Source: Candidatus Woesearchaeota archaeon (GTDB lineage: Archaea > Nanobdellota > Nanobdellia > SCGC-AAA011-G17 > GW2011-AR18). From it: a DNA stretch of 64,000 nt. The DNA lies in NCBI GenBank assembly GCA_018302235.1, contig JAGVZW010000033.1, forward strand, positions 434-64,433, in the 5' to 3' direction. Below are positions 34,486 through 62,916 of this stretch, one piece after another. The translations under genes and the position numbers were made by a program. The notes beneath the pieces are model-generated. The model worked only from the letters and a program-made list of their open reading frames with translations. It had not been told where the DNA came from and searched no databases. Position 1 is the first letter of the stretch; every line of letters begins with the position of its first letter.

Positions 34486-37400
34486 TTATAATTTAAAACG
34501 TTTTCTTTTTAACACAAAATAAATTCCAACAATTAGTAAAATCCCAAGAATTGCTATTATTATAGGCCATAACAAAGATGTTTCTTCTTCAATCTGTTCT
34601 TCTTGAACCTCTTCTTGTGCTTCCTTTTCCTCTGTTATTGTAGGTATCTCACTAATAATTTGTTCTTTAATCGTTTGTATCCTCAATAATGCTGTATTAT
34701 TTTGTATATTATCCAAACCAACACTAAGATCATAAAAATTATCTGCATTTAAATTAAATTTTTTAGTTTCTCCTATATAAATTACTGCCTCAATAGGCTC
34801 ACTTTGTACAAGAATCTTAACATTATCATCATTAATCTCTTTTACAGTTACAGTATGTGTAGCACCCTCAAAAATAAATTCAACAATATCCCCATCATTA
34901 AAATATTGTAGAATTCCTTGTTCTAATTTCTCATTTGTTACTGTAGTTTTTGTAGTTCCGGTTGGAGTACTACTCCCACCCCCACTTGAACTTGAAGTGG
35001 TAGATAAAGATTCTCTATATGATGAAAATTCACAATATGGTATCTTCCAAACACAATTAATTGAATCCAATAGAGTTGCTTCTGCAGTTTTATCCACACA
35101 ATTTGCACCAGCATCATCACAATGATACAATGTATCACAAACCCCTGTAAATGGTATTTTTAATTTACAGACCTCTGGATGTAAATTACCTATTATTTTA
35201 TCCCTTGTAGCAGAAGTTAATCCCAAAATATTACTATCACTTATTATATCTGCTCCCCCATCAATTGATCTGACCTTATCATTTAAAGCAGTCATTGTTA
35301 AACTAGCATTAATAAATTCAAAATATACACTACTATCATTCTTTGCCATCTTTATATTAACCAACCTTCCATCTGTATAATTTGTTTTCATCCCTGAATT
35401 AGTTCCACATACTTGACCCTGTATATGCTCATATACCCCATTCTGATCTAAATCATACGAAATTACCCAAGCAGAAGTTGTTTTTATTCTTGCCACAAAA
35501 TTACAATATGGACATGTTGCATTAGTAACTGTTATTATCGAACTACATTGACTTACAGCACAATGTGAATCAGTATCACAAACCTTTATCTTATAATAAT
35601 ATCCTGTTTGATTAGAGAGACTAAAATTCAAAGCATTAGTTCCATTATATAAATTTGCAGTATGCCACAACTTATAATCCCTAACATCACTACTTACTAA
35701 ACCTATATCTCTTACTGTTGAATTCACAGTCAAACATCTTGAATAATTAGAATAAAATTCAACTGTACCATTAGTTGGTTTATTTGTATCATACATTATT
35801 AATGCTGAATCTGGATATTCCTCTAATTTTACCCCTAAGACTTGTGGTGATCTAGCATCTGTATATCCTGGAGAATTAACCCCTAAATTTGTGCATGCTG
35901 ATGAAAATTCACAATCCCAATCATAACAATCTAGTGTATTATCACCATCATCATCTACACCATTAAAGCAATCCTCATACTTTACATAACCATTCTTCAA
36001 GATATCCTCAAATTTCGCTACATTAGCTCCATAAGAAAACATACTATCTATCTCAAAATCAATAGTACCTGGTGTAAACCATATTGGTCCAATAGAATCA
36101 CTAACTACTGAAATATTTTCATATAAACCTGCTGTTGAAACATAAATCCTTATTTCTTCAGATGAATTATACAATGTAGGAAATCTAGCTAATTCTGATT
36201 TTTCTACAGCAACCATAGGCCCGCTTATCTCTGAGCACATCTTAGTCTTCCATGTAGTTAGTTTAATATCAGTAGCAGCCCAAGCATTATCATCACATTT
36301 ATACGCTGTTGTAGATTCTATTGATTTGCTATTATTCACATCCCATGTTGAAGTATATTTAAATCTAAATTCATATCCTGTTTTTGTTGTGTCATTTGTA
36401 AGTGCACATCCCCCTGTTGCCAAACCATCTGTATCTAAATATACATAAAGCTTTATAGTATCATTCCCATTACCAACTTTATCAGCACCATAAATATACG
36501 CTGGAAGTTTTTCTTTATTACATATTGAAGAATTAGAGAAATCCCTAACCTTTACACCATATCCAAAGGCATTTACCATATCCTTCACTCCAATATTGCA
36601 TATATCTATACTTCCTGCAATAGTAGTCTCATTACAATCATCATACCCTAATGGCATCATTATACCGCTTTCCATTCCAGTAAATATTTCATTCATAAAT
36701 CCAGGATTACACCATCCAGTCATCCATTTGCACCCAAACCCACAACCAGCCTGTGCAGTTTGATTATAACATGTGGGTTCACAAGTTCCCCATGCAGTAA
36801 CATTACAATAAAGATTATTATTACACTCTGTTTCCCAATCTGTTGGATTAGCCCATTTTTGTAATGTACTATTCATCCAACATTGATCCATAATATTAGT
36901 ACACCAACCATATCCTGATTCATTATTCCACCAACAATTATTTGTTGCATTGCATCCCCCCCCTGCAGGTGATAAATACATCCAACAACTACTATTAGTC
37001 CAGTCTACATCACAAAAAGGCATAGGTTCTGGGAACCATCCACATGTAAGATTAATATGTGTTTTATTTGTGCATAAACTTTGATTACCATCATATTTAT
37101 AACAATTAGAACCTGCAGCAGTAGCTACTCCACCTGCACCCATAGTCGATGCACTTGAAAATCCCCCATATTTAGGATCACACCACCCAGATTCCTTCCA
37201 TGTACATCCAGATGTAGCCTGACAACCCCCTTGATTGTACATATTTGAGGCTGAAGAACATGTTTCTAGATCCTCTTCCTGACACCATCCATTTTGATCC
37301 TTCCATTGACAACCACCTTGTGCATTACAAACAGATGATGAACTCTGATTACCTAACAAAAAACACCTTGGTTCACAAAAAGTATATGTCCAATCAGAAC

Positions 37401-40347
37401 GCCAAAAACATAAGGAATTTCCATTAGCATCAAATTGATTCGCACATGCAGCAGTAGTACTAGCACTCCAACATTTCTCAGTTGGATTTGCACACCATCC
37501 ACCCCATGTATCATTCCTCCACCAACAATCTGCATCAACACAAGTAGAATTAGAATAATATTGCCAGCAATTAGCACTATAATTTACCTCACAATGTGGA
37601 GTACTATACGAATCTACATACCAATTACATCCATCTGTATTATTACAGTTTGTTGATGTTGTATACATCCAGCAATTCTTTGGTTTAAAATTATTATGAT
37701 CACACCATCCACCAGCACCAGTACACCATGTTGTAGTATTACCCGTACCTAAACACCAAGAATCCGCAGTCCAATTACAACCATTTCCAGAAGCTGCATC
37801 ACAATTAGCCTTACTTAAACCCATACATAACTGAGTTTGACTCCAATCCTCTTCACACCAAGAATAACCAGTACCATTCTGCCATAAACATTGTGTACGT
37901 GAATTACAATAAGTTTCATTCGTATCATACTTCCAACACTGCGAACCTGGAGAATCACACCAAGTCCCCCACTTATCAACAACCCACTCACAACTATTAG
38001 TTTCACACGTTGCTTGCGTTACCCATCCAGAACATTCACCCCCAATAAAACCGCAATAACTATCTGAATAACAAGCACTGTCCATACAATCTATCAATTG
38101 ATTATTATTATTATCTGACCCATCCCAACAAATCTCTCCACTCTCTCCTACATTTGAAGAACAATATCCATCACTTGATGTTCCCTCCCACTTACAAGCC
38201 CCACTAGTATTTGAAACATCAGCTCTACCTAAACCCTGACAATCTGACTGTGTATAACACCTATCACAAGCATCTAAACATGTTTTATCCCCTTTTTTTA
38301 AACAATAACCACCTATAGTCATAGAAGTGTCTACCACCCATTTACAACCACCAGCACCAGAGTTTGCATTACTATTCTCACAATAACTTCCTGGTCTCTT
38401 TGTTGTATCATTACTAAGCGGATCTCCCATATATGTACATGCCCCACAATCAACATTACAATCCACTACAACATTATTTTTATATTGATATTTAGTTTTA
38501 CAATAGCCAATATTATTAGATGCTCTTGTATCAGCCTCAAACTCACAAATCCCTAAAAGAGAATTTCTGCACGCAGAATCAGCATTAGTCGCATTTACAG
38601 TATTCCCATCGCTATCTTCATATTCACAACCATAACAAGCCTTATCACAACTTACATCACCTCCAAACTTACTCTCACATCTTCCAGTAGGAACAGAAAT
38701 ATTACCCTCACAATAACTCTCAGTAATCCAATTTCCTCCAGTAAATTCACAAGTTCTCTTGTTAGTCAACTTATTCAGGCTTTGAGATGTATTCCCAAAG
38801 ATATCTGCTGCATCTACCAAGCATCTCTCTGTTGTATTATCCCATTTACAAGGCATATACCATGGATCACCACTAATCTGTTCACATAAAGATTTATCAG
38901 TATAAGAACTATAATCCTCACAAAAATTTGCACCCGCTGGTGGTGCTGACATCTGATCCCAACATGTTGTAATCAATTTGTTTGCAGTACAATTATTATA
39001 TTGCCAAGAGCAACACGATGATAACACAGATATACTATTACATAAATTTGAATCATTTATATAACTACACTTTATTCCATTACCTGTAATATTAATTCCA
39101 TAATTGTTGGTTAATGTATTGCATTTTTCACTAGAATAATTACAACCCAATGTCAAATTACAATTTGTTTGATTCATATCAAAAACATAACATCCAGGAT
39201 TCCATTCCTCAAATATTGTAGTAGAACTATTTGTTAATGTCCAATTTGGCGTCTGACAGCTACCACCTACACCTAGGTTATTTAGATCAGTATACACCCA
39301 CCAACAATAAGATGTTGCAGAACAATCATATTGTGTTGTTTTATTCGCACAACCTGTTGTCGTATAATCTTTATAACACCACCCTGGATTAGTAGCATTT
39401 GTAGCATTAGAATAATCATTCCATTGACAATTCATACTATAGGTATTGTTCTCACATGCACTTGCATTTCCCCCCTTTGCACCATCCCAACTCCAACATT
39501 GAGCCTCTTCGCAATAAGATGTTGATTGAGAAGATTTCCAATAACAATTAGTCATATTAGTACATGTATTATTAGCAGTAAAAGTCCAACAATCCTGCGT
39601 TGTACAATAATTACTACTCCATTTACAACTTAAATTATAGGTATTATTCACACACGCTGTCTGATTAGTCCAATCATAAACATAACATGCTGGTTCCTGA
39701 CACCAATTATTTCTCCATGCACAATTGATTTCATCTGTCACAGACGCACATGCTGTCTGATTAGTATAACTTGAACACCATCTCTCTTGACAAAGATTAG
39801 CACTCCATGTACAATTTTTACCATTCCATGATTTGCCTGCATTACACGTTGATTGAGTAGTATAATCAATACCACAATTTCTATAATCACACTTTCCCCA
39901 ACTACAACTTGTTGTATTTAAACATGAAGCTCTTGTCGTCTGTGCTGAACAATCTGCAGACCATAAAAGGTTATTATTATAACAACTCTCACTCCATTTA
40001 CATCCTAGATTCCTTGAATTATTTTCACATGTATTCTGATTTGTTCCATATAAATCATAACATGATGCCGTACCACAATAATTAGTGGTCTTGGAACCCA
40101 CCCAAGTACAATTTTTTCCAGTAATTACAGTATTTGTACATTCATTTTGTGAGCCTAGATTCCAACAAGCCAATTCTGTACAGTATTTTCCCCCAGAATA
40201 CTGCTTCCAAATACAAGCATTAGCAGCAGTACAACTTGCATTATTAGTCTCAGTATACAACCAACAATTTGCACCATATATTGACTTAATAAAAACAAAA
40301 ACTAAAAAAAATATTAAAAGATAAATGTATATATTATTTTTCTTCAT
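34486..40347 (-). CDS. Giant (1953 aa) secreted, C-terminally membrane-anchored, Cys/Trp-rich repeat surface protein.
   Basis: Signal peptide MKKNNIYIYLLIFFLVFVFIKSIYG. Dozens of ~30-aa modules of the form C-[WY]-x(4-6)-N-x-[ST]-x-C-x(4-8)-C-x-W-x(4-8)-C. Very dense N-x-S/T sequons. A Ser/Thr-rich linker (SSSGGGSSTPTGTTKTT), an acidic stretch, a C-terminal TM helix and a KRKRFKL tail. Confidence 0.8.
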   Translation of the reverse strand: MKKNNIYIYLLIFFLVFVFIKSIYGANCWLYTETNNASCTAANACIWKQYSGGKYCTELACWNLGSQNECTNTVITGKNCTWVGSKTTNYCGTASCYDLYGTNQNTCENNSRNLGCKWSESCYNNNLLWSADCSAQTTRASCLNTTSCSWGKCDYRNCGIDYTTQSTCNAGKSWNGKNCTWSANLCQERWCSSYTNQTACASVTDEINCAWRNNWCQEPACYVYDWTNQTACVNNTYNLSCKWSSNYCTTQDCWTFTANNTCTNMTNCYWKSSQSTSYCEEAQCWSWDGAKGGNASACENNTYSMNCQWNDYSNATNATNPGWCYKDYTTTGCANKTTQYDCSATSYCWWVYTDLNNLGVGGSCQTPNWTLTNSSTTIFEEWNPGCYVFDMNQTNCNLTLGCNYSSEKCNTLTNNYGINITGNGIKCSYINDSNLCNSISVLSSCCSWQYNNCTANKLITTCWDQMSAPPAGANFCEDYSSYTDKSLCEQISGDPWYMPCKWDNTTERCLVDAADIFGNTSQSLNKLTNKRTCEFTGGNWITESYCEGNISVPTGRCESKFGGDVSCDKACYGCEYEDSDGNTVNATNADSACRNSLLGICEFEADTRASNNIGYCKTKYQYKNNVVVDCNVDCGACTYMGDPLSNDTTKRPGSYCENSNANSGAGGCKWVVDTSMTIGGYCLKKGDKTCLDACDRCYTQSDCQGLGRADVSNTSGACKWEGTSSDGYCSSNVGESGEICWDGSDNNNNQLIDCMDSACYSDSYCGFIGGECSGWVTQATCETNSCEWVVDKWGTWCDSPGSQCWKYDTNETYCNSRTQCLWQNGTGYSWCEEDWSQTQLCMGLSKANCDAASGNGCNWTADSWCLGTGNTTTWCTGAGGWCDHNNFKPKNCWMYTTSTNCNNTDGCNWYVDSYSTPHCEVNYSANCWQYYSNSTCVDADCWWRNDTWGGWCANPTEKCWSASTTAACANQFDANGNSLCFWRSDWTYTFCEPRCFLLGNQSSSSVCNAQGGCQWKDQNGWCQEEDLETCSSASNMYNQGGCQATSGCTWKESGWCDPKYGGFSSASTMGAGGVATAAGSNCYKYDGNQSLCTNKTHINLTCGWFPEPMPFCDVDWTNSSCWMYLSPAGGGCNATNNCWWNNESGYGWCTNIMDQCWMNSTLQKWANPTDWETECNNNLYCNVTAWGTCEPTCYNQTAQAGCGFGCKWMTGWCNPGFMNEIFTGMESGIMMPLGYDDCNETTIAGSIDICNIGVKDMVNAFGYGVKVRDFSNSSICNKEKLPAYIYGADKVGNGNDTIKLYVYLDTDGLATGGCALTNDTTKTGYEFRFKYTSTWDVNNSKSIESTTAYKCDDNAWAATDIKLTTWKTKMCSEISGPMVAVEKSELARFPTLYNSSEEIRIYVSTAGLYENISVVSDSIGPIWFTPGTIDFEIDSMFSYGANVAKFEDILKNGYVKYEDCFNGVDDDGDNTLDCYDWDCEFSSACTNLGVNSPGYTDARSPQVLGVKLEEYPDSALIMYDTNKPTNGTVEFYSNYSRCLTVNSTVRDIGLVSSDVRDYKLWHTANLYNGTNALNFSLSNQTGYYYKIKVCDTDSHCAVSQCSSIITVTNATCPYCNFVARIKTTSAWVISYDLDQNGVYEHIQGQVCGTNSGMKTNYTDGRLVNIKMAKNDSSVYFEFINASLTMTALNDKVRSIDGGADIISDSNILGLTSATRDKIIGNLHPEVCKLKIPFTGVCDTLYHCDDAGANCVDKTAEATLLDSINCVWKIPYCEFSSYRESLSTTSSSSGGGSSTPTGTTKTTVTNEKLEQGILQYFNDGDIVEFIFEGATHTVTVKEINDDNVKILVQSEPIEAVIYIGETKKFNLNADNFYDLSVGLDNIQNNTALLRIQTIKEQIISEIPTITEEKEAQEEVQEEQIEEETSLLWPIIIAILGILLIVGIYFVLKRKRFKL

Positions 40348-41340: not shown

Positions 41341-41452
41341 GCCTCACTAGCTCAGCCTGGTTAGAGCGCCACTCTCATATGTTTGAGAAATGAAGCATTA
41401 GCTAATGAACTAAGAAAGGTGGAGGTCGGGGGTTCAAATCCCCCATGAGGCA
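41341..41452 (+). tRNA. tRNA-Met (anticodon CAU) with a 37-nt intron at the canonical 37/38 position.
   Basis: Manual fold: acceptor GCCTCAC..ATGAGGC, D-arm GCTC/GAGC, anticodon stem CCACT/GGTGG with CTCATA followed by the intron (41380..41416), T-arm GGGGG TTCAAAT CCCCC. Confidence 0.7.
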
Positions 41453-42094: not shown

Positions 42095-43522
42095 TTAGTT
42101 TAACATAGCTTTTTTAATAAATATATGAGCATTATACAACTTTTCACATTTTATTTCATAATCCTTTATGTCTATTTTTTTAGAAAATATTGGACAATTA
42201 ACTACTAAAGTCTCTGCTTCTCCACCTTCAAATGCAACATTTATCCCCTTAATTTTAACTAATTTATCAACATCCTTTTCAGTAATTATTCTACCCAACC
42301 AAGATTTATCCAAACCATCACAAGCTACCTTGGTTATAATAAATTCAAAACCATTTCTAATTACCTCTCTTATCTCTTTTTCCTGATCCATATGCCATAA
42401 TGGTGAAAATATCTTTAAACCTAAAGAATCACAAATCTCTTCAATTCTTTTTCTTTGATAATCACTAAAAAGACCGCCATGTACTACCCCATCTATATGA
42501 TATTTTTTTTTAGCTAATTTTAACACTATTTTTAAATCCTCTAATTCCTTTTCTTTTTCACCCCAAGTTTCTTGTATAATTAAAGGAATACCTAAAGAAT
42601 CTGCCTGTAATCTAACTAAATCTATAGTTGGTGTATGATACATAAAAGAATCTTTATTTTTACTTTTAATTGTAACTAAACATTCAATCTTATAATTTTG
42701 TTTCATCATTACATACATTGCATAAATACTGTCCTTGCCACCACTAACTAATGCACCTAATCTTAAATTATAAGAATAATATTTCTTTAAATAACCTGAA
42801 ATATCTCTTTTTCCTGATTTTTTTAATGCCTTATGAAAATTAGAACCATATTGGGCAGCCCTTTTCTTTCTATTATATATCTCTTTTTTTAAACCCAAAT
42901 CCTTTCCTATTTCTCTCAAAATTAATTTATTATTCTTCTCATTAATCTTATATTTTCCATCAATATTTAAAACAAATTCAATTAATTTCTTATCTAAAAA
43001 TGGTAGTCTTAATTCTAAATTATTATACATAGTTATTACATCATCTCTATATAAATCTCTCTCATACATCTTTAACAAACCACTTAAACATTCTTTATTT
43101 ATATCATTAGAATTTTTATGTCTTTCATAACCAGCAAATATCTCTTCAGAACCCAAACCAGAGAAAATTACCTTACAACCATCTTTTCTTGCTTGTTCAC
43201 ATGCTACAAAGAAAGGCAAAGCTACACCAACCTTAGTAACATTTGTATCTTCAATCAATGGAATTATCTTTTCTAAATATGGTTTAATATCTTTAATTTC
43301 TATTACTTTCAAATCTAAATTTAACTCTTTAGCTACTTTTTTAGCAAAAATTACATCTTCAGCTTCTTTAATATTTTCACTATAAAAACCAGAAACATAA
43401 CAAGTAAAATCAACATTAAATTCCTTTAAAATCACAGCTAAAATTGTAGAATCTATTCCACCAGAAAACAGTAAACCTAATTTCTTTTTAGGTATTCTTT
43501 TTTTTACAGCTTCAAACAACAA
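42095..43522 (-). CDS. Asparagine-synthetase-type PP-loop synthetase domain fused to a Dph6/MJ0570-like PP-loop ATPase domain.
   Basis: N-terminal LGLLFSGGIDST with GYERH...RDD...LELRLPFLD is the AsnB C-domain pattern. The C-terminal half has a second PP-loop, ALVSGGKDSIYAM, resembling diphthine-ammonia ligase (Dph6) type ATP-binding domains. The apparent start codon is TTG. Confidence 0.65.
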   Translation of the reverse strand: MLFEAVKKRIPKKKLGLLFSGGIDSTILAVILKEFNVDFTCYVSGFYSENIKEAEDVIFAKKVAKELNLDLKVIEIKDIKPYLEKIIPLIEDTNVTKVGVALPFFVACEQARKDGCKVIFSGLGSEEIFAGYERHKNSNDINKECLSGLLKMYERDLYRDDVITMYNNLELRLPFLDKKLIEFVLNIDGKYKINEKNNKLILREIGKDLGLKKEIYNRKKRAAQYGSNFHKALKKSGKRDISGYLKKYYSYNLRLGALVSGGKDSIYAMYVMMKQNYKIECLVTIKSKNKDSFMYHTPTIDLVRLQADSLGIPLIIQETWGEKEKELEDLKIVLKLAKKKYHIDGVVHGGLFSDYQRKRIEEICDSLGLKIFSPLWHMDQEKEIREVIRNGFEFIITKVACDGLDKSWLGRIITEKDVDKLVKIKGINVAFEGGEAETLVVNCPIFSKKIDIKDYEIKCEKLYNAHIFIKKAMLN

Positions 43523-49256: not shown

Positions 49257-50748
49257 TTCACTGGTGTATTAAGTGGGCTTTTTTAAGAATAAAATATATG
49301 AAATATATGGAATATGGTAAAGTTTATATAGTTCTTATATTGCATATATTTATGCAAATAAGATATAATCCATTTAATCCTCAACAACCAGCAAAACCTC
49401 ATTTTTTTGTTGGAAGAGAACAGGAAGTAAAATGTTTTGAAAATTTTTTAGGTCAAACTATTTACAATTCTCCTATGAATATGACCATTACAGGAGATAG
49501 AGGAATGGGTAAAACATCAATATTAAATAAATTTGAAGAGATAGCAGATAATCAAAGAGCCTTAGTAGTTAATGTTTCTAATTATGAGGGTAATGTAAAA
49601 GATGTAATTGAACTATCTGAATTCCTAATTACAAATATTCAAAGAGAAATAATAAGTCGTAATCCTATTTCAAAAAAAATTAATGAATTTGGAAAATGGG
49701 TTAGTTCATTTAAAGCAAGAATAGAAGTAAAAGGAATTACAATAGCTTTAGAAAAGAAACAAATAGTTGAATATATTTTAAGAGAAAAATTAGAAGAAAT
49801 ATGGAAAAATGTTAAAGAAATGTATACATCTATTGTAATTTTAATTGATGAAGCCGAAAGTTTAGAAAATATGGATGGTTTAACTTTTTTAAGAGAAGTT
49901 TTTCAAAAAGTACAATCAAATTCAAATTATATGATTGTTTTAGCAGGAAAATTTAACTTTCCTGAAAAAATGTCAGAACAATTTTCTCCTTTAAATCGCT
50001 TTTTTCCTGCAGAAAGATTAAGAAGATTAACTGAAAAAGATGTTTCAAATTATTTAGAAAATAGATTAAATGATACTGAGGTTAATATTGACAAAGAAGC
50101 CATATATAATTTATTTAAAAAATCAGAAGGACATCCGTATGTTTTAGTTTGTATTGGTTTTTTAGTTTTCGATTCTTTAAAAACTAATGAAATGGCTATT
50201 AATTCAGATGTTGTAGAAAGAAGTATTTGGAAAATTAGAGGGAAATTATCTCAAGATTTTTTTACTCCTATGTTTTATCCTTTATCACCACAAGCAAAAA
50301 GAATAATATGTAAAATCGCTAAAGAAATTAAAGGTTTAAAATTTACAATGAATGAAGCTACTTTAATAACTAATATGCCTAATAATCAACTTTCTGGTTA
50401 TTTTGGAGAATTTTTAAAAAGAGGAATACTTACAAAACCAAGTAGAGGTGTATATTGGATATTTCATACACAATTTAAAGAATATTTAATACATAATTCG
50501 GATAAATTTAATTAGATTCTTTTTCAATAATAATCTTTCCTTTTTCAAATACAATCTTTAATTCTTTGTCTATTAACCCACTCTCTTCTATTATTCTTTT
50601 AGGAAGATTAATTCTATATCTAAAATACTTATTATTATTAATCTCTTTGTCAAATGCTTTTAAAATTTTCATAAATGGTTTAGATATCAGAAGTTTTTAA
50701 AGTGTTCCGGTTTCCGAATTATTTAAGCCCACTTAATGCACCAGTGAA
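49257..50748. mobile_element. Putative transposon-like insertion: 24-bp terminal inverted repeats flanked by an 8-bp direct repeat (GCTTAGAA), carrying one ATPase gene.
   Basis: Left end TTCACTGGTGTATTAAGTGGGCTT (49257..49280). Right end AAGCCCACTTAATGCACCAGTGAA (50725..50748), its reverse complement with 1 mismatch. GCTTAGAA lies immediately outside both ends (49249..49256 and 50749..50756). Confidence 0.5.
49298..50515 (+). CDS. AAA+ ATPase of the archaeal ATPase (Arch_ATPase/ORC-like) family.
   Basis: FFVGREQEV...MTITGDRGMGKTSIL is Walker A and ILIDEAESL is Walker B, with a C-terminal wH-like region. Confidence 0.6.
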   Translation: MKYMEYGKVYIVLILHIFMQIRYNPFNPQQPAKPHFFVGREQEVKCFENFLGQTIYNSPMNMTITGDRGMGKTSILNKFEEIADNQRALVVNVSNYEGNVKDVIELSEFLITNIQREIISRNPISKKINEFGKWVSSFKARIEVKGITIALEKKQIVEYILREKLEEIWKNVKEMYTSIVILIDEAESLENMDGLTFLREVFQKVQSNSNYMIVLAGKFNFPEKMSEQFSPLNRFFPAERLRRLTEKDVSNYLENRLNDTEVNIDKEAIYNLFKKSEGHPYVLVCIGFLVFDSLKTNEMAINSDVVERSIWKIRGKLSQDFFTPMFYPLSPQAKRIICKIAKEIKGLKFTMNEATLITNMPNNQLSGYFGEFLKRGILTKPSRGVYWIFHTQFKEYLIHNSDKFN

Positions 50749-51488: not shown

Positions 51489-52607
51489 ATGGAAAAGAAA
51501 TATTCCTCCCATCACGATACTAAAAAATATGCATGGGATTTTGCAAGAGAAAGATTTGGAAGTAAAGATGATGAAATTACTAAAGTAGAAACGTTAAGTT
51601 TATCTAGAAAAGATGAGAGTAAAAAAGATTCTGGTATTTTGAATGTTAAAACTAAAGATCAATTAAGTCAAGTGCATGAGAGTAATATTAAAGAAGAACC
51701 TCATATTTTAAAACCTTGGTATAAATTAATAGAACGGCTTACATATAGAAAAAAGAATAACGAGCTTACAAAAATTGATGAAAATTCTTTTAAAAGAATT
51801 GTAAAGATTGGATCAGTATTTATTGAAATCAATGACCGTACTGCTTATAACAGAGCTTTATATGAAAGAGGAAATAATTTTGGACTAGAAGAGCGTTTTT
51901 TGAAAAAACATTTTAAAGGTATTAGTTTTGCTGCTGCAACTACTGCTTTAACTATAGGAGTATTTACATTATATAATAGATTTAAATCTTCAATTGACGA
52001 TCATTTTCAAGTAAAAACCCCTATTAGCTATCAAATTAAAGAGCTTGAAGATGATTTAGAGGGAATCGTTGAAGATTATAAACCCAGAGAAATTGAAGTT
52101 GTTGAAACTAAACCAATTAAAGTTGTTGAAACTAAACCAATTAAAGTTGTTGAAACTAAACCAATTAAAGTTGTTGAAACTAAACCAATTAAAGTTGTTG
52201 AAACTAAACCCAGAGAAGAGATTAGAAAAAATGGGATGTATAGTGTTGATTTTTCAAGAACAAGTTTTAGAAATGGAAGAATAATAAGCACTACTGAATC
52301 TAATAAAATAATGCGGTTTTCAGAATATCATGGAACTCCTTATAAAGGGGAGGGCGATGAATTAAAATTGCGGATAAATAAAGATGGAACATCTTATCAA
52401 ATAAGATCTGAAACGAAAAAAGCTAGGAACTATTTTGTTATATGTTATGATACAAATGGTAATTTTATTGGGACTAAAAATGGAAATATTTCTAATGAGG
52501 ATGTAGTTCAAATACCTAAGGAAACAAGATATACTGATACTATGCTATTAAATGAAAAAGGAATAAGTATTGCATCACATATCAGTTACCAAAATATTGT
52601 TTTATAA
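51489..52607 (+). CDS. Hypothetical protein with a single TM segment and a VETKPIKV tandem-repeat region.
   Basis: 372 aa with a TM helix at GISFAAATTALTIGVFTLY. Four to five in-frame VVETKPIK repeats are encoded by a 24-nt tandem array. Confidence 0.45.
   Translation: MEKKYSSHHDTKKYAWDFARERFGSKDDEITKVETLSLSRKDESKKDSGILNVKTKDQLSQVHESNIKEEPHILKPWYKLIERLTYRKKNNELTKIDENSFKRIVKIGSVFIEINDRTAYNRALYERGNNFGLEERFLKKHFKGISFAAATTALTIGVFTLYNRFKSSIDDHFQVKTPISYQIKELEDDLEGIVEDYKPREIEVVETKPIKVVETKPIKVVETKPIKVVETKPIKVVETKPREEIRKNGMYSVDFSRTSFRNGRIISTTESNKIMRFSEYHGTPYKGEGDELKLRINKDGTSYQIRSETKKARNYFVICYDTNGNFIGTKNGNISNEDVVQIPKETRYTDTMLLNEKGISIASHISYQNIVL
52098..52211. repeat. 24-nt perfect tandem repeat (4.75 copies) flanked by aaacccagagaa.
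   Basis: Unit gttgttgaaactaaaccaattaaa, in frame within the 51489..52607 CDS. Confidence 0.85.
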
Positions 52608-52794: not shown

Positions 52795-53346
52795 ATGAAA
52801 AGATTAATACTGTTATTTATATTAATGTTAATGATAGCAAGTTGTAGTATTCAAAAAAATGATGGTTTTATAAAAATAAAAAATGTACTCTTAGAGGAAA
52901 AAAATAATACAACTAATATTATTGAAGAAAAAGAAACTAAACCAAAAGTAGTTACAACTGAAGATCTAAACAGTGAAGATGAAGAAGAGGATAATAATGA
53001 TGAAGATGATAACGAAGAAGAAGAAACTAAATTAACAACAGATAAAAACGAAATTACTGTAAAAACACCAGATGGAGATTTAAAAATTGTTATGAACAAT
53101 GCAAATGAATGGTGTATAGGAGGGTCAATCTGGGATTATACAGTACCCAGTTCAAAAGGAACAAGCTATGTAAAGGGAAAAGTAACTGGCATAATCACTG
53201 ATAACAATGAATTAAATGGTCTATGTGAGATATTCTATAGTATAAAGAATCCAGATGGAACTACATCAGAAATATACAATTATTTTAATAAAAGCAATGA
53301 TATCCTATATGCTAAAGATTTGAATGGAACACTTTATAAAAAATGA
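52795..53346 (+). CDS. Secreted lipoprotein-like protein with an acidic (D/E-rich) region, hypothetical.
   Basis: MKRLILLFILMLMIASCS is a lipobox-like signal. It has a poly-acidic stretch EDEEEDNNDEDDNEEEE and two Cys in the C-terminal domain. Confidence 0.4.
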   Translation: MKRLILLFILMLMIASCSIQKNDGFIKIKNVLLEEKNNTTNIIEEKETKPKVVTTEDLNSEDEEEDNNDEDDNEEEETKLTTDKNEITVKTPDGDLKIVMNNANEWCIGGSIWDYTVPSSKGTSYVKGKVTGIITDNNELNGLCEIFYSIKNPDGTTSEIYNYFNKSNDILYAKDLNGTLYKK

Positions 53347-53720
53347 TTAACCTTATTTTTTTCTTTTAAATTAGCAAAGGTTGCTCCCACATCAATTATA
53401 TATTTGCCTTCATCTAACATATAGACTATAGGCTCCTTTTTAAATAATTTAGCTATATCCAATTCAAATTTACCTGATTTTGTAATATTGATTGAAGCCA
53501 AATCTAACACTATAAGCTTATCATCTGAATTAATCCCTAATATATCCAATACATCTTTTTCTATATTCTCCTTTTCTTCTAAAGAAAGATTATGAATATT
53601 CTTTTCAGTTTTAGACTTGATAAAAAAAAAGAATTTTCCACCACAACCATTACATCCCTTAAGTATTTCATCTGAACCATCTTCAAATATTCTGTCGCAT
53701 TTTACACATTGATGTGGCAT
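53334..53720 (-). CDS. Zinc-ribbon protein conserved in archaea, hypothetical.
   Basis: N-terminal CVKC..x13..CNGCG Cys4 ribbon. Last gene of the GTPase operon. May correspond to the DUF2072-type Zn-ribbon family, recalled from memory and uncertain. Confidence 0.4.
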   Translation of the reverse strand: MPHQCVKCDRIFEDGSDEILKGCNGCGGKFFFFIKSKTEKNIHNLSLEEKENIEKDVLDILGINSDDKLIVLDLASINITKSGKFELDIAKLFKKEPIVYMLDEGKYIIDVGATFANLKEKNKVNHFL

Positions 53721-53722
53721 AT

Positions 53723-54118
53723 TTAATACTTCCTTTTTCTTCTATCTAATGTTAGAAGTTCAATTTTAAATGGATCTTTTTTTATTTCTTTAACTATTGT
53801 AGCTGGTCCAACAATAGTTAAACCATTTGATCTACCCAATAAAAAATTAGCAATTTTTAATCTGATCCTCTCAAATAATTCCTGATTTTGTTTAATGTTA
53901 TCAATACTGCATATCTCGATCCCCTTAAATTTTTTATCTATTTCCTCCATTGTTTTAGTTATTAATTCTGCCTCTTCATTAGGATCTAATTTTCCCTCTA
54001 TTAAAATTATCTTATCCTCTTTTACACTCCTTAAAATCTTTTTTAATTTTTCTTCTGTATTCAAATTTCCAAGTTCATGATATGGGATATATTGTAACGT
54101 TAACAATTTTTTGTTCAC
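53723..54118 (-). CDS. Conserved archaeal hypothetical protein, possibly DUF2073-like.
   Basis: 131 aa, overlaps the upstream GTPase stop by 4 nt and lies 3 nt upstream of the Zn-ribbon gene. Confidence 0.35.
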   Translation of the reverse strand: MNKKLLTLQYIPYHELGNLNTEEKLKKILRSVKEDKIILIEGKLDPNEEAELITKTMEEIDKKFKGIEICSIDNIKQNQELFERIRLKIANFLLGRSNGLTIVGPATIVKEIKKDPFKIELLTLDRRKRKY

Positions 54119-56136
54119 CTCTTTTTCACCATTTCAAATACCTTATCATAAAATTCCTCCATGTTTAAGCCCTTTTCAGCTGATATGCCTATAACAGAAT
54201 ATTGAGGAAATGCATCTTCTATTTTTTTTACATCAGATTTCTTTAAATCTGTTTTATTAGCTACAATTAAAACTGGAATATCCCTTGCAGCTAAATTACC
54301 TATAATTGTTATATTTACTTGATTATATGGATTTCTAGTTGAATCTAATACAATTAAAACACAATCCATATCATCCAACCATTTTATTGCATCTATAATC
54401 CCCTTTGTAGCCTCTTTCGCCCTTTCTTTTGCTTCATCTATCTTCATTTTAAATTTAAGAAAATCCTCATAATCAATCTTTGTAGCGATTCCTGGTGTAT
54501 CAACTAGATTAAAACTTAATTCCTTTCCCTTTGAATTAATAGTGATTTTTTCCTTCATATTTATTTCCCTTGTTTCATGTGGAATAGAAGATACTGTTCC
54601 CATATCTTCCCCTAACCAATCCTGACATATTCTATTTGCAATGCTAGTATTATGAGCGATCAGGCCATTAGAAATAATAAAGGTATGTGTATCTTCAATT
54701 GTTAAATCATAAATATAATCATTATATTCTTCTTGAGTTATTTCTTTAATTTCATCCCACAAGTTATCTGAATTAGTTAAAGTCTTTATAATTTTATTAT
54801 TTAATACTCTAGACATTTTCTCTAATCTATGATATGATATTCTATTATCTCTGTACATTCTAGCAATATGTTTATTATCTAAATAAAATTCTTCTTCTTT
54901 TAATTTCTCTTGTTTTCTTATATTTTCCAATAAACCCATAATAGGCAAATAAAACTTATTTCTTTTTAAACAACATTTGGATAGTTTATCTAATCTTTCA
55001 GCTTTATATTTTATTCTAAAACCAATTTTTTCTTTAAACAATCTGTGATTATCACTTCCAAATATAAATAAACTCCAGTAGGCTTGACCATTAATTAATT
55101 TTGATCTAAATCTCCCTACAATCCCAAATCTATTTAAAAGTAATTGAACTTGTTCTACCAAAATTTTACTTTTGGTACTATATTCAATCTGATTGCTAGA
55201 ATTTTTAGTTAATTTAGAAACATAACCCCCCATATCAAATAAAATTTGTAATAATTTTGCTGTTAAATTATCAGGTAAACCCATAAATTGTGAAGGAATT
55301 TGTTTATTACCTGAAAGAGATGGTTTGAAATTTAAACTTTTTTCTAAAAAATCAGTTAATGTTCTTGAATTTAATTCTCTTTCAGGCACACCATTATTTA
55401 TTCTTTTAATGGCTTCTAAATTGAATAATTTTTTTGTTAAATAATCAAAATGATTTAATGCGTATTCGTCTGAATTACTAAATTTAATCACGCTTTTTGT
55501 ATAATATGCTTCTGTAATTAGATAACCTATAAAACTAACTAAATCTTCATCTATGTAAGAAGGTATAATTATCTCTTTTTGATTATGAAATTTAGATATT
55601 ATTTGTATCATATTGCCATTAACGTTGAAACAATTTTCAGTAATTAATTTGGGTAACATAATGTTTGTTGCTAAGGATAACTTTTTTGCAATAGCAATAG
55701 ATTCATTAGCCTTTAAACCTCCAGTTCTTATATTCTCTACGCCATTATTTGAAAGCCTGATTAATGGATGTTCTGGTGTAACTCTTATTTGTCTACCCGC
55801 TTTAGTTAAAATATTATATATTTTTCCTTTATATTTTTGAGCATAAACAAAACTCACTCGTTTTGGAATTATTTTTAAGGTTTGTGTATTAAAACTTGGT
55901 ATGATTAAATTTTTAGATCTTACATCAATATATATTTCATTAAATGAATTATTATGGTTTACGCTATCAAATATTTCTTTTATTGTTTTAATTTCTCCAT
56001 TCATTAATACAATTTTAGTTTCTGGTGTAACACATTTTCCGCTGTTCGGTGGCCCATAAAGTCCTAATTTTATATTCTTCTTTTTATTAAAAATTGACCT
56101 TAAATTAAAAAAGAAAACCTTAAGCTTACGAATCAT
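54115..56136 (-). CDS. Small Ras/Era-like GTPase interrupted by an intein in the P-loop. The mature extein is about 211 aa.
   Basis: Extein motifs are GLYGPPNSGK|...|TSI (G1, split), DTPG (G3), NKTD (G4) and SAEK (G5). The intervening 462 aa begin with Cys and end with HN, followed by Thr. Confidence 0.65.
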   Translation of the reverse strand: MIRKLKVFFFNLRSIFNKKKNIKLGLYGPPNSGKCVTPETKIVLMNGEIKTIKEIFDSVNHNNSFNEIYIDVRSKNLIIPSFNTQTLKIIPKRVSFVYAQKYKGKIYNILTKAGRQIRVTPEHPLIRLSNNGVENIRTGGLKANESIAIAKKLSLATNIMLPKLITENCFNVNGNMIQIISKFHNQKEIIIPSYIDEDLVSFIGYLITEAYYTKSVIKFSNSDEYALNHFDYLTKKLFNLEAIKRINNGVPERELNSRTLTDFLEKSLNFKPSLSGNKQIPSQFMGLPDNLTAKLLQILFDMGGYVSKLTKNSSNQIEYSTKSKILVEQVQLLLNRFGIVGRFRSKLINGQAYWSLFIFGSDNHRLFKEKIGFRIKYKAERLDKLSKCCLKRNKFYLPIMGLLENIRKQEKLKEEEFYLDNKHIARMYRDNRISYHRLEKMSRVLNNKIIKTLTNSDNLWDEIKEITQEEYNDYIYDLTIEDTHTFIISNGLIAHNTSIANRICQDWLGEDMGTVSSIPHETREINMKEKITINSKGKELSFNLVDTPGIATKIDYEDFLKFKMKIDEAKERAKEATKGIIDAIKWLDDMDCVLIVLDSTRNPYNQVNITIIGNLAARDIPVLIVANKTDLKKSDVKKIEDAFPQYSVIGISAEKGLNMEEFYDKVFEMVKKR
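54649..56034 (-). other. Intein (about 462 aa) with a LAGLIDADG-type homing endonuclease domain, inserted after the P-loop Lys.
   Basis: Block A is CVTPETKIVLMNGE directly after GPPNSGK. The C-terminal block is THTFIISNGLIAHN, with Thr as the +1 residue. Internal LAGLIDADG-like motifs are LVSFIGYLITEAYY and LLQILFDMGGYVS. Confidence 0.6.
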
Positions 56137-58281: not shown

Positions 58282-58881
58282 ATGGAAAAACGCACTGACT
58301 ATTTTGAAACAAAAAATAGGGAGTTTTATTATGAATTTAAACAAACAGAAGATAAGAAAAAACGCGAAGAATGGGTATTATTTAACAAACATCTTGTTTA
58401 TTCTATAGCAAAAAAATTTACTAATTTTAGTATATATGATGATATTATTCAAGAGGGGTATATTGGCTTAATCCATGCTGTAGATAGATATAACCCGAAT
58501 TTAGGGAATTTTAGCAGTTTCGCATACTCTGCTATAATGAGAGAAATAATTAGATATATAAGAAAAAATAGATCAATAGTACATCCCCCTATAAATAATC
58601 AGCTAAGTGTATCAAAAGACGTAGCTATTGATGATATTATAGACCTAGAAGCAGAAACAAATCCAGAAACAGTACTACAAAAAAAAGAATTGGTTGAAGA
58701 TGTTCAAAAAACATTAAAATTAACAAGTTTAAGTGATATCTTAATTAGAATAATGTATGATGAAAATACATCAATAATAGCCAGAGCATATAAAGTATCT
58801 AGAAGAGAAATGCACCAATTAGAAACTAGGGCAGTTAAAACATTTAAAAAAAGATTCGAAACACCTGAAGCCTATATTTAA
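58282..58881 (+). CDS. Sigma-70-family-like protein (regions 2 and 4) encoded in an archaeal context.
   Basis: DIIQEGYIGLIHAVDRYNPNLGNFSSFAYSAIMREIIRYIRKNRSIVHPP aligns with sigma-70 regions 2.1 to 2.4 (DLIQEGNIGLMKAVDKF..G.KFSTYA.WWIRQAI.R.I...RTIRIP). IARAYKVSRREMHQLETRAVKTFKK resembles the region 4.2 HTH (VTRERIRQIEAKALRKLR). Confidence 0.55.
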   Translation: MEKRTDYFETKNREFYYEFKQTEDKKKREEWVLFNKHLVYSIAKKFTNFSIYDDIIQEGYIGLIHAVDRYNPNLGNFSSFAYSAIMREIIRYIRKNRSIVHPPINNQLSVSKDVAIDDIIDLEAETNPETVLQKKELVEDVQKTLKLTSLSDILIRIMYDENTSIIARAYKVSRREMHQLETRAVKTFKKRFETPEAYI

Positions 58882-61477: not shown

Positions 61478-62221
61478 TTAAATAATATTCTTAATTTCTT
61501 TAAATATAACAGCAAAATTAGGAACTATAGAAACATAATCCTTCAATTCATTTGACCATAAATTTTCCATATCTTTAATCTTTAATAAAAAAGACTTAGA
61601 ATCATATTTTTGATTATAATATTTTAATTTTTTATTAATCAGACTAATATCAAATTTAACACCTTTTCTTAATAAAAAATAAAAATCAAATATGTCTCTT
61701 GGTTTGCTTCTATTCATTATTGTTCTTACCTTTTCAGCCATAATTTCTCTCTCATCCATTACTAAAATATTATATGGTCTCAAATCAGAATAAACAGGAA
61801 ATATTTCAATTAATTTAGGATCTAACAAAATACTCTCTCGTAAACTGATGTCTAATCGAAGAGTACATAAACTAACTAAACTATTTACATATAAAGGCCC
61901 TTTTATCTTAAAAATAAAATTTTTTCCCAAATTTTTAACTTCTTCAAATTTAGTCTCATATCCAAAATCAGTTAAAGAATTAGCTATCTTAGAAATTAAA
62001 CTAATATCAAAATCTTTTGTTTGTGTAAAATCCAAATCTATACTAAACCTATTCAAACCATAAATCTTCTGCATAGCAGTTCCACCCTTAAAAATTAATT
62101 CATTAGAAAAATATTGTGACAAAAAGATTAAAAATAAATGTTGTAAATAATCCTTTTCGACTTGTGCTAAATTAAATCCTATAACTGAACAATATTTATT
62201 TAATTCATTTTTAGTTATCAT
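61478..62221 (-). CDS. AbiEii/DUF1814-family nucleotidyltransferase (type IV toxin-antitoxin / abortive-infection toxin).
   Basis: IFKGGTAMQKIYGLNRFSIDLDF matches the conserved DUF1814 N-terminal block (GGTAL...RFSxDxDF). Confidence 0.65.
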   Translation of the reverse strand: MITKNELNKYCSVIGFNLAQVEKDYLQHLFLIFLSQYFSNELIFKGGTAMQKIYGLNRFSIDLDFTQTKDFDISLISKIANSLTDFGYETKFEEVKNLGKNFIFKIKGPLYVNSLVSLCTLRLDISLRESILLDPKLIEIFPVYSDLRPYNILVMDEREIMAEKVRTIMNRSKPRDIFDFYFLLRKGVKFDISLINKKLKYYNQKYDSKSFLLKIKDMENLWSNELKDYVSIVPNFAVIFKEIKNII

Positions 62222-62916
62222 TCCAATACCTCATTAATATTTAATCTCCATCTAACTGAGTTATTTTTGCTTTTTTTCAAATAAGGATTCAAAAGATCAT
62301 ATCTATTGTTAATTTTTACCTTTTTTGATATATCAATACTAATCAAATCCAATAAAAACCCCAATCTTTTTAACAAAACAATAGAATTCATCAGTAAAGC
62401 ATATTTTAATAATTTTTCAATATCAATTTTATTTTTTAAAACCTCAAAAGTCTCAGAAATTGGACAAAATTTAGGTAGATATAAAGAATCAATTATAGCT
62501 TTTTCTAACTCTGCAACAAATAAATAATTCTTTTTATAAATCATCTTTCTATAGCCAAAAACATTTTTTAAAACAACAAAATTAATAGTCATCTTATTAA
62601 AAATTAAAGATTTTTTTGGTTTAGAAGAAACAATATAAATAGTCTTAGGAATTTGTGTAGTCAAACCATAAATAGAGTAGGCACTAATAAAAGAGATATA
62701 TGACGGAAAAATCAAATTAGAAGCAACCTCATAAGGTTCATCAGATAGAGTATATTTATTTTTTTCTATCTCCGTAATAATATTCCTTTTTTTTAGTCTA
62801 TATATATACAAACGACTATACTCTTTATTTTTATTAATAATCTTAGAGATATCATTTAATGTTAGAACTGAAGTTTTCATAGTTTCAATTTTTTTTAAAA
62901 AATCAAGTGCTTGCAT
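62218..62916 (-). CDS. AbiEi-like antitoxin/transcriptional regulator partner of AbiEii.
   Basis: 232 aa. Its stop overlaps the AbiEii start by 4 nt. The N-terminal region is wHTH-like. Confidence 0.45.
   Translation of the reverse strand: MQALDFLKKIETMKTSVLTLNDISKIINKNKEYSRLYIYRLKKRNIITEIEKNKYTLSDEPYEVASNLIFPSYISFISAYSIYGLTTQIPKTIYIVSSKPKKSLIFNKMTINFVVLKNVFGYRKMIYKKNYLFVAELEKAIIDSLYLPKFCPISETFEVLKNKIDIEKLLKYALLMNSIVLLKRLGFLLDLISIDISKKVKINNRYDLLNPYLKKSKNNSVRWRLNINEVLE

Follow-up and report, generated by a model that had tools for sequence, protein, structure and literature searches.

Why does the gene of a small archaeal GTPase encode a protein of 673 amino acids (aa), when its closest relatives have about 210? 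The question is raised by a 64,000-nucleotide (nt) stretch of DNA from a Candidatus Woesearchaeota archaeon (assembly GCA_018302235.1, contig JAGVZW010000033.1, positions 434 to 64,433), which is called the window here. The open reading frame (ORF) concerned lies at 54115..56136 on the minus strand (673 aa plus stop; ORF list, Pfam and NCBIfam), and its sequence marks it as carrying a class-1 intein that splits the P-loop of the GTPase. The gene is the precursor of a DPANN (Woese- or Pacearchaeota-type) orthologue of ArvA, also named OapA, and heads an arvA-arvB-arvC operon. Taken together, the evidence makes it probable that we are dealing with an ArvA precursor that contains a canonical class-1 P-loop intein with a probably decayed endonuclease, fixed and vertically inherited.

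The insertion and its splicing motifs

All parts of the gene are given in minus-strand coordinates. The N-extein (aa 1-34, 56035..56136) comprises a predicted N-terminal helix, strand beta1 and the P-loop through Lys34 (GPPNSGK, aa 28-34). Cys35 follows directly and begins an insertion of 462 aa (aa 35-496, 54649..56034) with the terminus ...GLIAHN, which places the intein between the Lys and the Thr of the Walker-A loop; its limits and its class (class 1, Cys1 ... His-Asn) come from hidden Markov models (HMMs), block alignment and a DNA comparison with an empty allele. The C-extein (aa 497-673, 54118..54648) opens with Thr497, at once the +1 nucleophile and the P-loop Thr of the GTPase, and continues through motifs G2 to G5, namely HETR, DTPG (aa 546-549), NKTD (aa 627-630) and SAEK (aa 652-655). 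Excision in silico yields a 211-aa GTPase in which GPPNSGK-T is restored and the four later motifs are retained, and the predicted splice-junction peptide of the ligated ArvA is LGLYGPPNSGKTSIANR. The original prediction, made from the sequence alone, had described a Cys-initiated 462-aa insertion after GPPNSGK that ends in ...AHN with Thr at +1, and had placed DTPG, NKTD and SAEK beyond it; all of these statements and boundaries were correct.

The insertion also scores well over every curated cut-off in the intein HMM search that the original prediction had proposed as a check. Pfam returned PF14890 Intein_splicing (95.7 bits against a cut-off of 35.8, E 3e-27) and PF14528 LAGLIDADG_3 (60.4 against 22.5, E 2e-16), and the NCBIfam models for the N- and C-terminal intein splicing regions gave 61.5 bits against 24.5 (TIGR01445) and 29.2 against 15.6 (TIGR01443). 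The N-terminal lobe of the HINT splicing domain spans approximately aa 35-185 (55582..56034; TIGR01445 and block alignment) and contains block A (Cys35) and block B (TPEH, aa 120-123, 55768..55779). The C-terminal lobe (aa 450-496, 54649..54789; TIGR01443) contains block F (YDLTIEDTHTF) and block G (NGLIAHN). Between them lies a LAGLIDADG homing-endonuclease domain at approximately aa 186-449 (54790..55581), delimited by PF14528, by fold matches and by the deletion boundaries of mini-inteins. Across 27 full-length homologues, C35, T120, H123, D477, T479, H484, T485, F486 and N496 are invariant.

Orthologues that lack the insertion provide the clearest view of its limits. A search with the spliced extein returned, among its best 120 matches, about 119 intein-free proteins of about 210 aa (70-81% identity, 94-100% coverage), and the alignment with intein-less orthologues that had been proposed earlier found the spliced 211-aa product colinear with them over its full length. 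The closest orthologue (P0001, 81% identity) is intein-free and comes from a Nanoarchaeia metagenome-assembled genome (MAG; locus L001). Set against the DNA of this empty allele, the window gene has a clean insertion, in frame, with the Lys codon AAA before it and the Thr codon ACT after it. That the insertion is a normal domain of the GTPase is ruled out by the intein-free orthologues together with the conserved splice residues. Furthermore, the same 673-aa protein occurs, identical, on at least 22 independently assembled contigs, which excludes an artefact of assembly or sequencing; over 3.5 kb, two loci match the window at 100% identity. An apparent split of the gene in locus L118 proved to be a scaffold gap of Ns, with no frameshift.

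Might the insertion nevertheless have ceased to splice, so that arvA is in effect dead in this lineage? Gene loss does occur in the reduced genomes of DPANN archaea, a general consideration and not a direct point in favour. However, no stop interrupts the 673-codon frame, none of the catalytic splicing residues has been lost, the extein deviates at none of 84 conserved columns (a column being counted as conserved when at least 90% conserved in the 27 sequences compared), and the partner genes arvB and arvC are intact and translationally coupled. A dead arvA is hardly credible.

Structure models are in keeping with this anatomy. In the AlphaFold model of the precursor, the intein is predicted with confidence (predicted local distance difference test, pLDDT, about 90), and its best matches in the PDB are the TliVMA intein (7qss; E 1e-31, target template-modelling score 0.83), PI-PfuI, PI-PkoII and PhoVMA; I-DmoI is also among the fold matches of its two-helix LAGLIDADG domain. 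The N-extein and residues 498-554 of the precursor model fall under pLDDT 50, whereas the spliced extein modelled alone forms a complete G domain (pLDDT 82), with a helix predicted at residues 3-16 (KLKVFFFNLRSIFNK) at pLDDT below 50. This contrast in model confidence agrees with a GTP site that would form only after splicing, and does not amount to proof of it.

We propose the following course of events. With the intein seated between Lys34 and Thr35 (mature numbering), the precursor would be unable to form its GTP-binding site. After translation, Cys1 would form a thioester at the N-terminal junction, Thr+1 would attack this thioester, and the terminal Asn would cyclise with the assistance of the penultimate His. 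Ligation of the exteins would then give a 211-aa ArvA whose GPPNSGKT is intact, and the 462-aa intein would be set free.

Identity of the host GTPase

The two genes that follow arvA on the minus strand identify the operon. The first, arvB (oapB; 131 aa, 53723..54118), matches PF09846 (71.4 bits, cut-off 27), and its GTG start overlaps the TGA stop of arvA. The second, arvC (oapC; 128 aa, 53334..53720), matches PF09845 (80.3 bits, cut-off 23), begins 2 nt past the arvB stop, and encodes a Cys4 zinc-ribbon protein whose translation contains the CxxC...CxxC pattern. In 12 related loci, arvB comes after arvA wherever the flanking sequence is long enough, and arvC is next in most. The original prediction was thus right that the GTPase heads a conserved three-gene operon, as both the tight coupling and this synteny indicate, and that one partner is a Cys4 zinc ribbon.

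The arvABC genes are the oapABC operon, first noted beside a replication origin of Haloferax volcanii and renamed by Mills et al. (2024; PMC10927574). In H. volcanii, deletion of arvA abolishes RNA-containing extracellular vesicles and overexpression of ArvA causes hypervesiculation, and mutants of arvB and arvC are also altered in vesicle output (PMC10927574). ArvA homologues are known from 14 archaeal phyla, including Nanoarchaeota and other DPANN, and the published homologue table has 256 entries from Woesearchaeales and 163 from Pacearchaeales; in 93% of cases the gene directly downstream of arvA is arvB, and in 78% arvC is found no more than two genes away (PMC10927574). The window has the same arrangement, with an OapB-family gene directly downstream and an OapC-family gene within two genes, and the spliced 211-aa product is a single-domain small GTPase with motifs G1 to G5, as expected of the ArvA family. 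The H. volcanii protein (HVO_3014) is likewise a single-domain small GTPase whose gene is followed by an OapB-family gene and then an OapC zinc-ribbon gene. An amphipathic helix at the N-terminus is a further mark of the family; in the window protein the helix predicted there (residues 3-16) is of low confidence. By analogy with the haloarchaeal system, ArvA may also serve vesicle formation in DPANN archaea.

In contrast to the H. volcanii operon, no origin association was found for the arvABC genes of the window: no Orc1/Cdc6 turned up among the larger ORFs scanned, which are part of those in the window. A nearby 405-aa AAA_16/STAND-like ATPase at 49298..50515 (plus strand) is not Orc1/Cdc6, and no replication-origin marker was seen beside this 'origin-associated' operon. 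A tblastn search of plasmid records with the extein, which sought haloarchaeal ArvA, returned bacterial MnmE and Der only.

Is the host instead a GTPase of the Era, Der or EngB type, associated with the ribosome or translation and functionally tied to L21e, rpoF and DUF655? The extein has MMR_HSR1, '50S ribosome-binding GTPase', as its top Pfam match, and its best NCBIfam and PDB sequence matches are Der and Era. The genes for DUF655, rpoF and L21e do lie directly upstream of arvA in the window; the original prediction had placed them next to the operon and proposed a poorly characterised translation- or transcription-associated module. However, the scores against the equivalog models are far under cut-off (Der 56.8 against 306.7, Era 49.2 against 237, YsxC 37.1 against 124), and the protein is a single G domain of 211 aa with neither a KH domain nor a second G domain. 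Among the 12 related loci, 11 lack the DUF655/rpoF/L21e adjacency, and in the remaining one (L001) two other genes intervene, whereas arvB and arvC are constant. The link to translation or transcription is unsupported because these upstream neighbours are so rare; the partners are OapB and OapC, which define arvABC. The neighbourhood is therefore conserved for arvB and arvC, and for the upstream cluster only in L001. The resemblance of the extein to Era and Der is, as far as the sequence comparisons go, generic, and we consider an Era/Der-type host quite improbable.

Probable endonuclease decay and the homing cycle

If the host is ArvA, what is the state of the element that interrupts it? The original prediction described a full-size homing intein with two LAGLIDADG-like blocks. 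The endonuclease domain is indeed full length and both blocks are present, helix 1 (block C) at aa 199-211 (LVSFIGYLITEAY; 55504..55542) and helix 2 (block E) at aa 295-305 (LLQILFDMGGY; 55222..55254), but the second has lost its catalytic acid. Block C keeps Glu209. Block E reads LFDMGG where about 31 relatives have F/Y-D-x-(E/D)-(G/A), and Gly303 (codon GGG, 55228..55230, one base from GAG) thus replaces the Glu or Asp expected at the catalytic position, so that an acid closes only one of the two LAGLIDADG motifs. In a HMMER alignment to TliVMA, an intein with an experimentally active endonuclease, the Asp of block C lies opposite Glu209 and that of block E opposite Gly303. PhoVMA, which is without the block C and E acids, is inactive, and its cleavage is rescued when the acids are restored (Beyer et al., 2022; PMC8966425).

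The wider pattern of substitution points the same way. At 8 of 79 conserved endonuclease columns the window copy departs from the consensus, more than any other of the 27 sequences (the runner-up has 7), and it does so at 2 of 53 conserved columns in the splicing domain. The Gly303 allele is identical on at least 22 contigs, and a sibling allele (P0121, 94% identical) has Gly303 too, plus a 31-aa in-frame deletion in the endonuclease domain. From these comparisons we think it rather likely that the window copy has lost double-strand homing activity; a nickase, or a residual or weak endonuclease activity, is possible.

The opposite case is that of a fully active homing intein, in which splicing and double-strand cleavage both work and empty arvA alleles are still being invaded. 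The full-length domain with its confident LAGLIDADG fold, the retention of Glu209 in block C and Asp301 in block E, and the identity to relatives in the endonuclease domain (57%), which is no lower than that in the N-terminal splicing lobe (54%), would all suit such an element, and the patchy distribution of alleles described below agrees with recent mobility of the family. However, Gly303 stands where the relatives have Glu or Asp and the active TliVMA has Asp, PhoVMA is inactive without these acids (PMC8966425), no other sequence has as many changes at conserved endonuclease columns, and the sibling allele has gone on to lose a further 31 aa. Full activity is unlikely.

Counts of ArvA inteins rest on a protein search with the whole precursor and on an intein-profile scan of 185,579 GTDB species genomes. 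The former gave about 27 clusters of full-length proteins (663-696 aa, 55-63% identity), along with several fragments and four shorter proteins, each of about 400 aa; the latter gave nine full-size ArvA inteins and one mini-intein (48-58% identity). In all, about 35 clusters of public proteins and about 10 GTDB species have an ArvA intein at the same site, and all their junctions have the form GPPNxGK/C ... (AHN, ASN or SGN)/(T or S), slashes marking the splice sites here and below. The GTDB examples are in MAGs of Pacearchaeota, Woesearchaeota or Nanoarchaeota, with one exception. This is L014 (CAYTDO010000020.1), an 'uncultured Methanosarcinales' MAG whose arvA(intein)-arvB-arvC is of the Woese-/Pacearchaeota type, perhaps through misbinning or a transfer. 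As a rough estimate, the intein is present in a few per cent or less of the ArvA genes of this clade.

The distribution of the intein is patchy, with some vertical signal kept. The nearest extein relatives of the window protein are all intein-free, and intein-bearing exteins are more distant (at most 74% identity); extein and intein distances correlate weakly (Spearman 0.26). On a neighbour-joining tree of the 210-aa extein, the 31 alleles with an intein are scattered in 16 groups among the 119 without one, and at least 15 gains or losses are needed, against about 28.5 with shuffled labels, in a sample whose intein-free members are biased towards relatives of the window sequence. Two BioSamples with consecutive numbers contain the closest intein-free relative, at locus L002 (SAMN03842439), and a window-identical, intein-bearing copy, at L117 (SAMN03842438); occupied and empty arvA alleles probably co-occur at one study site.

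Four mini-inteins of 187-217 aa (five sequences, two of them identical) complete the picture. Each is nearest to a different full-length lineage and their deletion boundaries differ, which argues that the endonuclease domain was lost independently several times. Together, the ArvA alleles represent a full homing cycle, with empty, full-size, decaying and mini-intein forms. We suggest that the intein arrived by endonuclease-mediated homing into the conserved P-loop site, and that the window copy is in the decay phase of this cycle, kept only because the production of ArvA would need splicing.

Related inteins, regulation and significance

Where might such an intein have come from? Identity within the ArvA inteins is 48-63%, against at most 35% outside, and because of this sharp gap they constitute an allele family of their own. 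Their nearest other relatives, at 30-35% identity, are inteins of Micrarchaeota TPR-AAA+ ATPases, where the junction YGPPGCGK/C...HN/T compares with YGPPNxGK/C...HN/T in ArvA. These TPR-AAA+ inteins were seen at loci L015-L019 (L016-L019 from Micrarchaeota, L015 labelled only 'uncultured archaeon') and in proteins P0156-P0158. The local similarity YGPPxxGK/T suggests that an intein may have jumped between the AAA+ ATPase and ArvA sites. Further away (25-29% identity) are DPANN inteins at GLYGxGK/C...VHN/TTT, one of whose hosts (P0159) is SRP54 by Pfam and likewise a GTPase. P-loop inteins with this junction, 520-590 aa in length, occur in at least 25 DPANN species genomes (L020-L048, L055-L058, L074, L078, L080; P0159, P0160). 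More distant relatives are in MCM, DnaB, V-ATPase A, clamp loader and other proteins, nearly all at GK/C...HN/(T or S). The window intein would accordingly belong to a related group that occupies the same position, between GK and T or S, in other P-loop NTPases.

The P-loop is the commonest intein site (PMC4513877; PMC4760082), and GTPases such as aIF2 are already listed as intein hosts (PMC4760082). The aIF2/IF-2, MCM-a, RFC-S-a and DnaB-b inteins share this hotspot with the ArvA intein (PMC4760082) but are at most 30% identical to it and have hosts in replication or translation; the top NCBIfam match of the precursor is in fact the intein-containing IF-2 model PRK14845, with an alignment that begins at the query P-loop. 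No paper on an intein in ArvA/OapA or in a small GTPase was found in the literature searched, whose coverage ended short of the supplementary host tables of PMC4760082; no intein is mentioned for any ArvA in PMC10927574, and nothing relevant was found on DPANN P-loop inteins or SRP54 inteins. The earlier suggestion that inteins are unusual in small GTPases holds in so far as ArvA inteins are rare and without a paper of their own, and fails in that the P-loop is the commonest site, aIF2 a listed host and the SRP54 P-loop intein a DPANN parallel. Both in type (class 1, LAGLIDADG) and in site (the most typical one) the window intein is ordinary. The literature does not describe ArvA as an intein host, but such alleles are already annotated automatically in public databases; the JGI pipeline labels two such proteins 'intein/homing endonuclease/GTPase SAR1 family protein'. 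Phage records and IMG/VR contigs contained relatives of at most 34% identity only, with no sign of viral carriage, and a search of the window for further inteins of the ArvA family found none.

The TliVMA and PhoVMA inteins of V-ATPase subunit A (PDB 7qss, 7qst) are the best structural matches and have the same HINT plus LAGLIDADG architecture, but their sequence identity to the window intein is only about 17-22% and their host is different. A V-ATPase A homologue (P0166) has its intein at a GPFGSGK/C junction, a P-loop site like that of the window intein. The PhoVMA endonuclease decayed through loss of the acids of both blocks C and E (PMC8966425), whereas the window intein lacks the block E acid only and its helix is untruncated.

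In the RadA protein of Pyrococcus horikoshii (Pho), the Walker-A Lys is followed by a class-1 mini-intein of about 170 aa, with Cys1, His-Asn and Thr+1 but without an endonuclease. Its C-terminal splicing lobe matches the window intein in sequence (E 6e-10) and in fold. This intein (PDB 4e2t, 4e2u, 2lqm) is also in the P-loop of a P-loop NTPase (PMC4513877), although its host is a recombinase ATPase and that of the window a small GTPase. The Pho RadA intein's splicing is under the control of its native exteins and of temperature (PMC4513877); of these two inteins, it alone is documented as splicing conditionally.

Could the ArvA intein have been domesticated as a conditional splicing switch, with an environmental or cellular cue gating the activation of ArvA and the formation of vesicles? 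The Pho RadA intein offers a precedent (PMC4513877), the splicing residues are strictly conserved as the endonuclease decays, and the fixed allele recurs in identical form in many samples. However, a purely selfish intein in a needed gene predicts the same retention of splicing and the same decay, the intein is missing from most ArvA orthologues, among them the closest one (81% identity), and repeated loss and mini-intein formation speak against selection for a switch. Such domestication is very improbable. There is a slimmer chance still that splicing upon a signal (host contact, temperature, redox or nucleotide level) times vesicle formation or membrane remodelling in an episymbiotic DPANN archaeon. 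If a switch did exist, the decaying endonuclease would mark the change from a selfish element to a regulator.

We return to the gene as an ArvA precursor with a fixed P-loop intein that is probably in decay; several points weigh against this account. Protein splicing is inferred from intact sequence motifs and not from experiment; the sequence anatomy, orthology, synteny and distribution are matters of direct comparison. The function of ArvA has been demonstrated in haloarchaea only (PMC10927574), and our assignment comes from the operon partners and the G domain, not from a direct comparison with HVO_3014. In a fold search of the PDB, the extein matched Era/Der/MnmE and Rab/Arl about equally. 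Loss of the endonuclease is read from one catalytic position and a modest excess of substitutions (8 against 7), in a domain that in other respects has its full length and shares about 57% identity with relatives. The extein tree was built by neighbour joining from a 210-aa protein, and its intein-free sample is biased.

The window has further features of interest. A 199-aa protein at 58282..58881 (plus strand) has a bacterial-type Sigma-70 region 2 (Pfam 2e-16) amid the archaeal genes for L21e, rpoF and RNA polymerase A'/B, and the gene is also on the identical contigs L116 and L117. A tRNA of 112 nt at 41341..41452 (plus strand; Rfam 48 bits), missed by ARAGORN, is probably an intron-containing archaeal tRNA. 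A 372-aa ORF at 51489..52607 (plus strand) contains five tandem copies of VETKPIK (21-nt period) and has no Pfam match; in this repeat region both overlapping frames are open repeat ORFs as well. A 1953-aa ORF at 34486..40347 (minus strand) matches no Pfam family at E <= 1e-4. An AbiEii nucleotidyltransferase toxin of a type IV toxin-antitoxin system lies at 61478..62221 (minus strand; Pfam 4e-31), directly downstream of an unannotated 232-aa ORF (62218..62916), a possible partner whose overlap with the toxin gene is 4 nt. Finally, in a 475-aa protein at 42095..43522 (minus strand), a PP-loop domain of the asparagine-synthase type is joined to a diphthamide synthase domain (Diphthami_syn_2).

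In summary, these findings leave the current understanding of inteins and of ArvA unchanged, and add the vesiculating GTPase ArvA to the P-loop NTPases that have been invaded by inteins. Automated annotation presents the precursor as a 673-aa '50S ribosome-binding GTPase', and surveys of ArvA based on length or domain content could miss or misfile such alleles. The compact mini-inteins (187-217 aa, Thr or Ser at +1) could interest protein engineers. Above all, the ArvA alleles form a natural series at one site, with empty, full-size, point-inactivated and partly deleted forms and four independently formed mini-inteins, and this series is useful for study of the homing cycle and of intein movement between P-loop sites.

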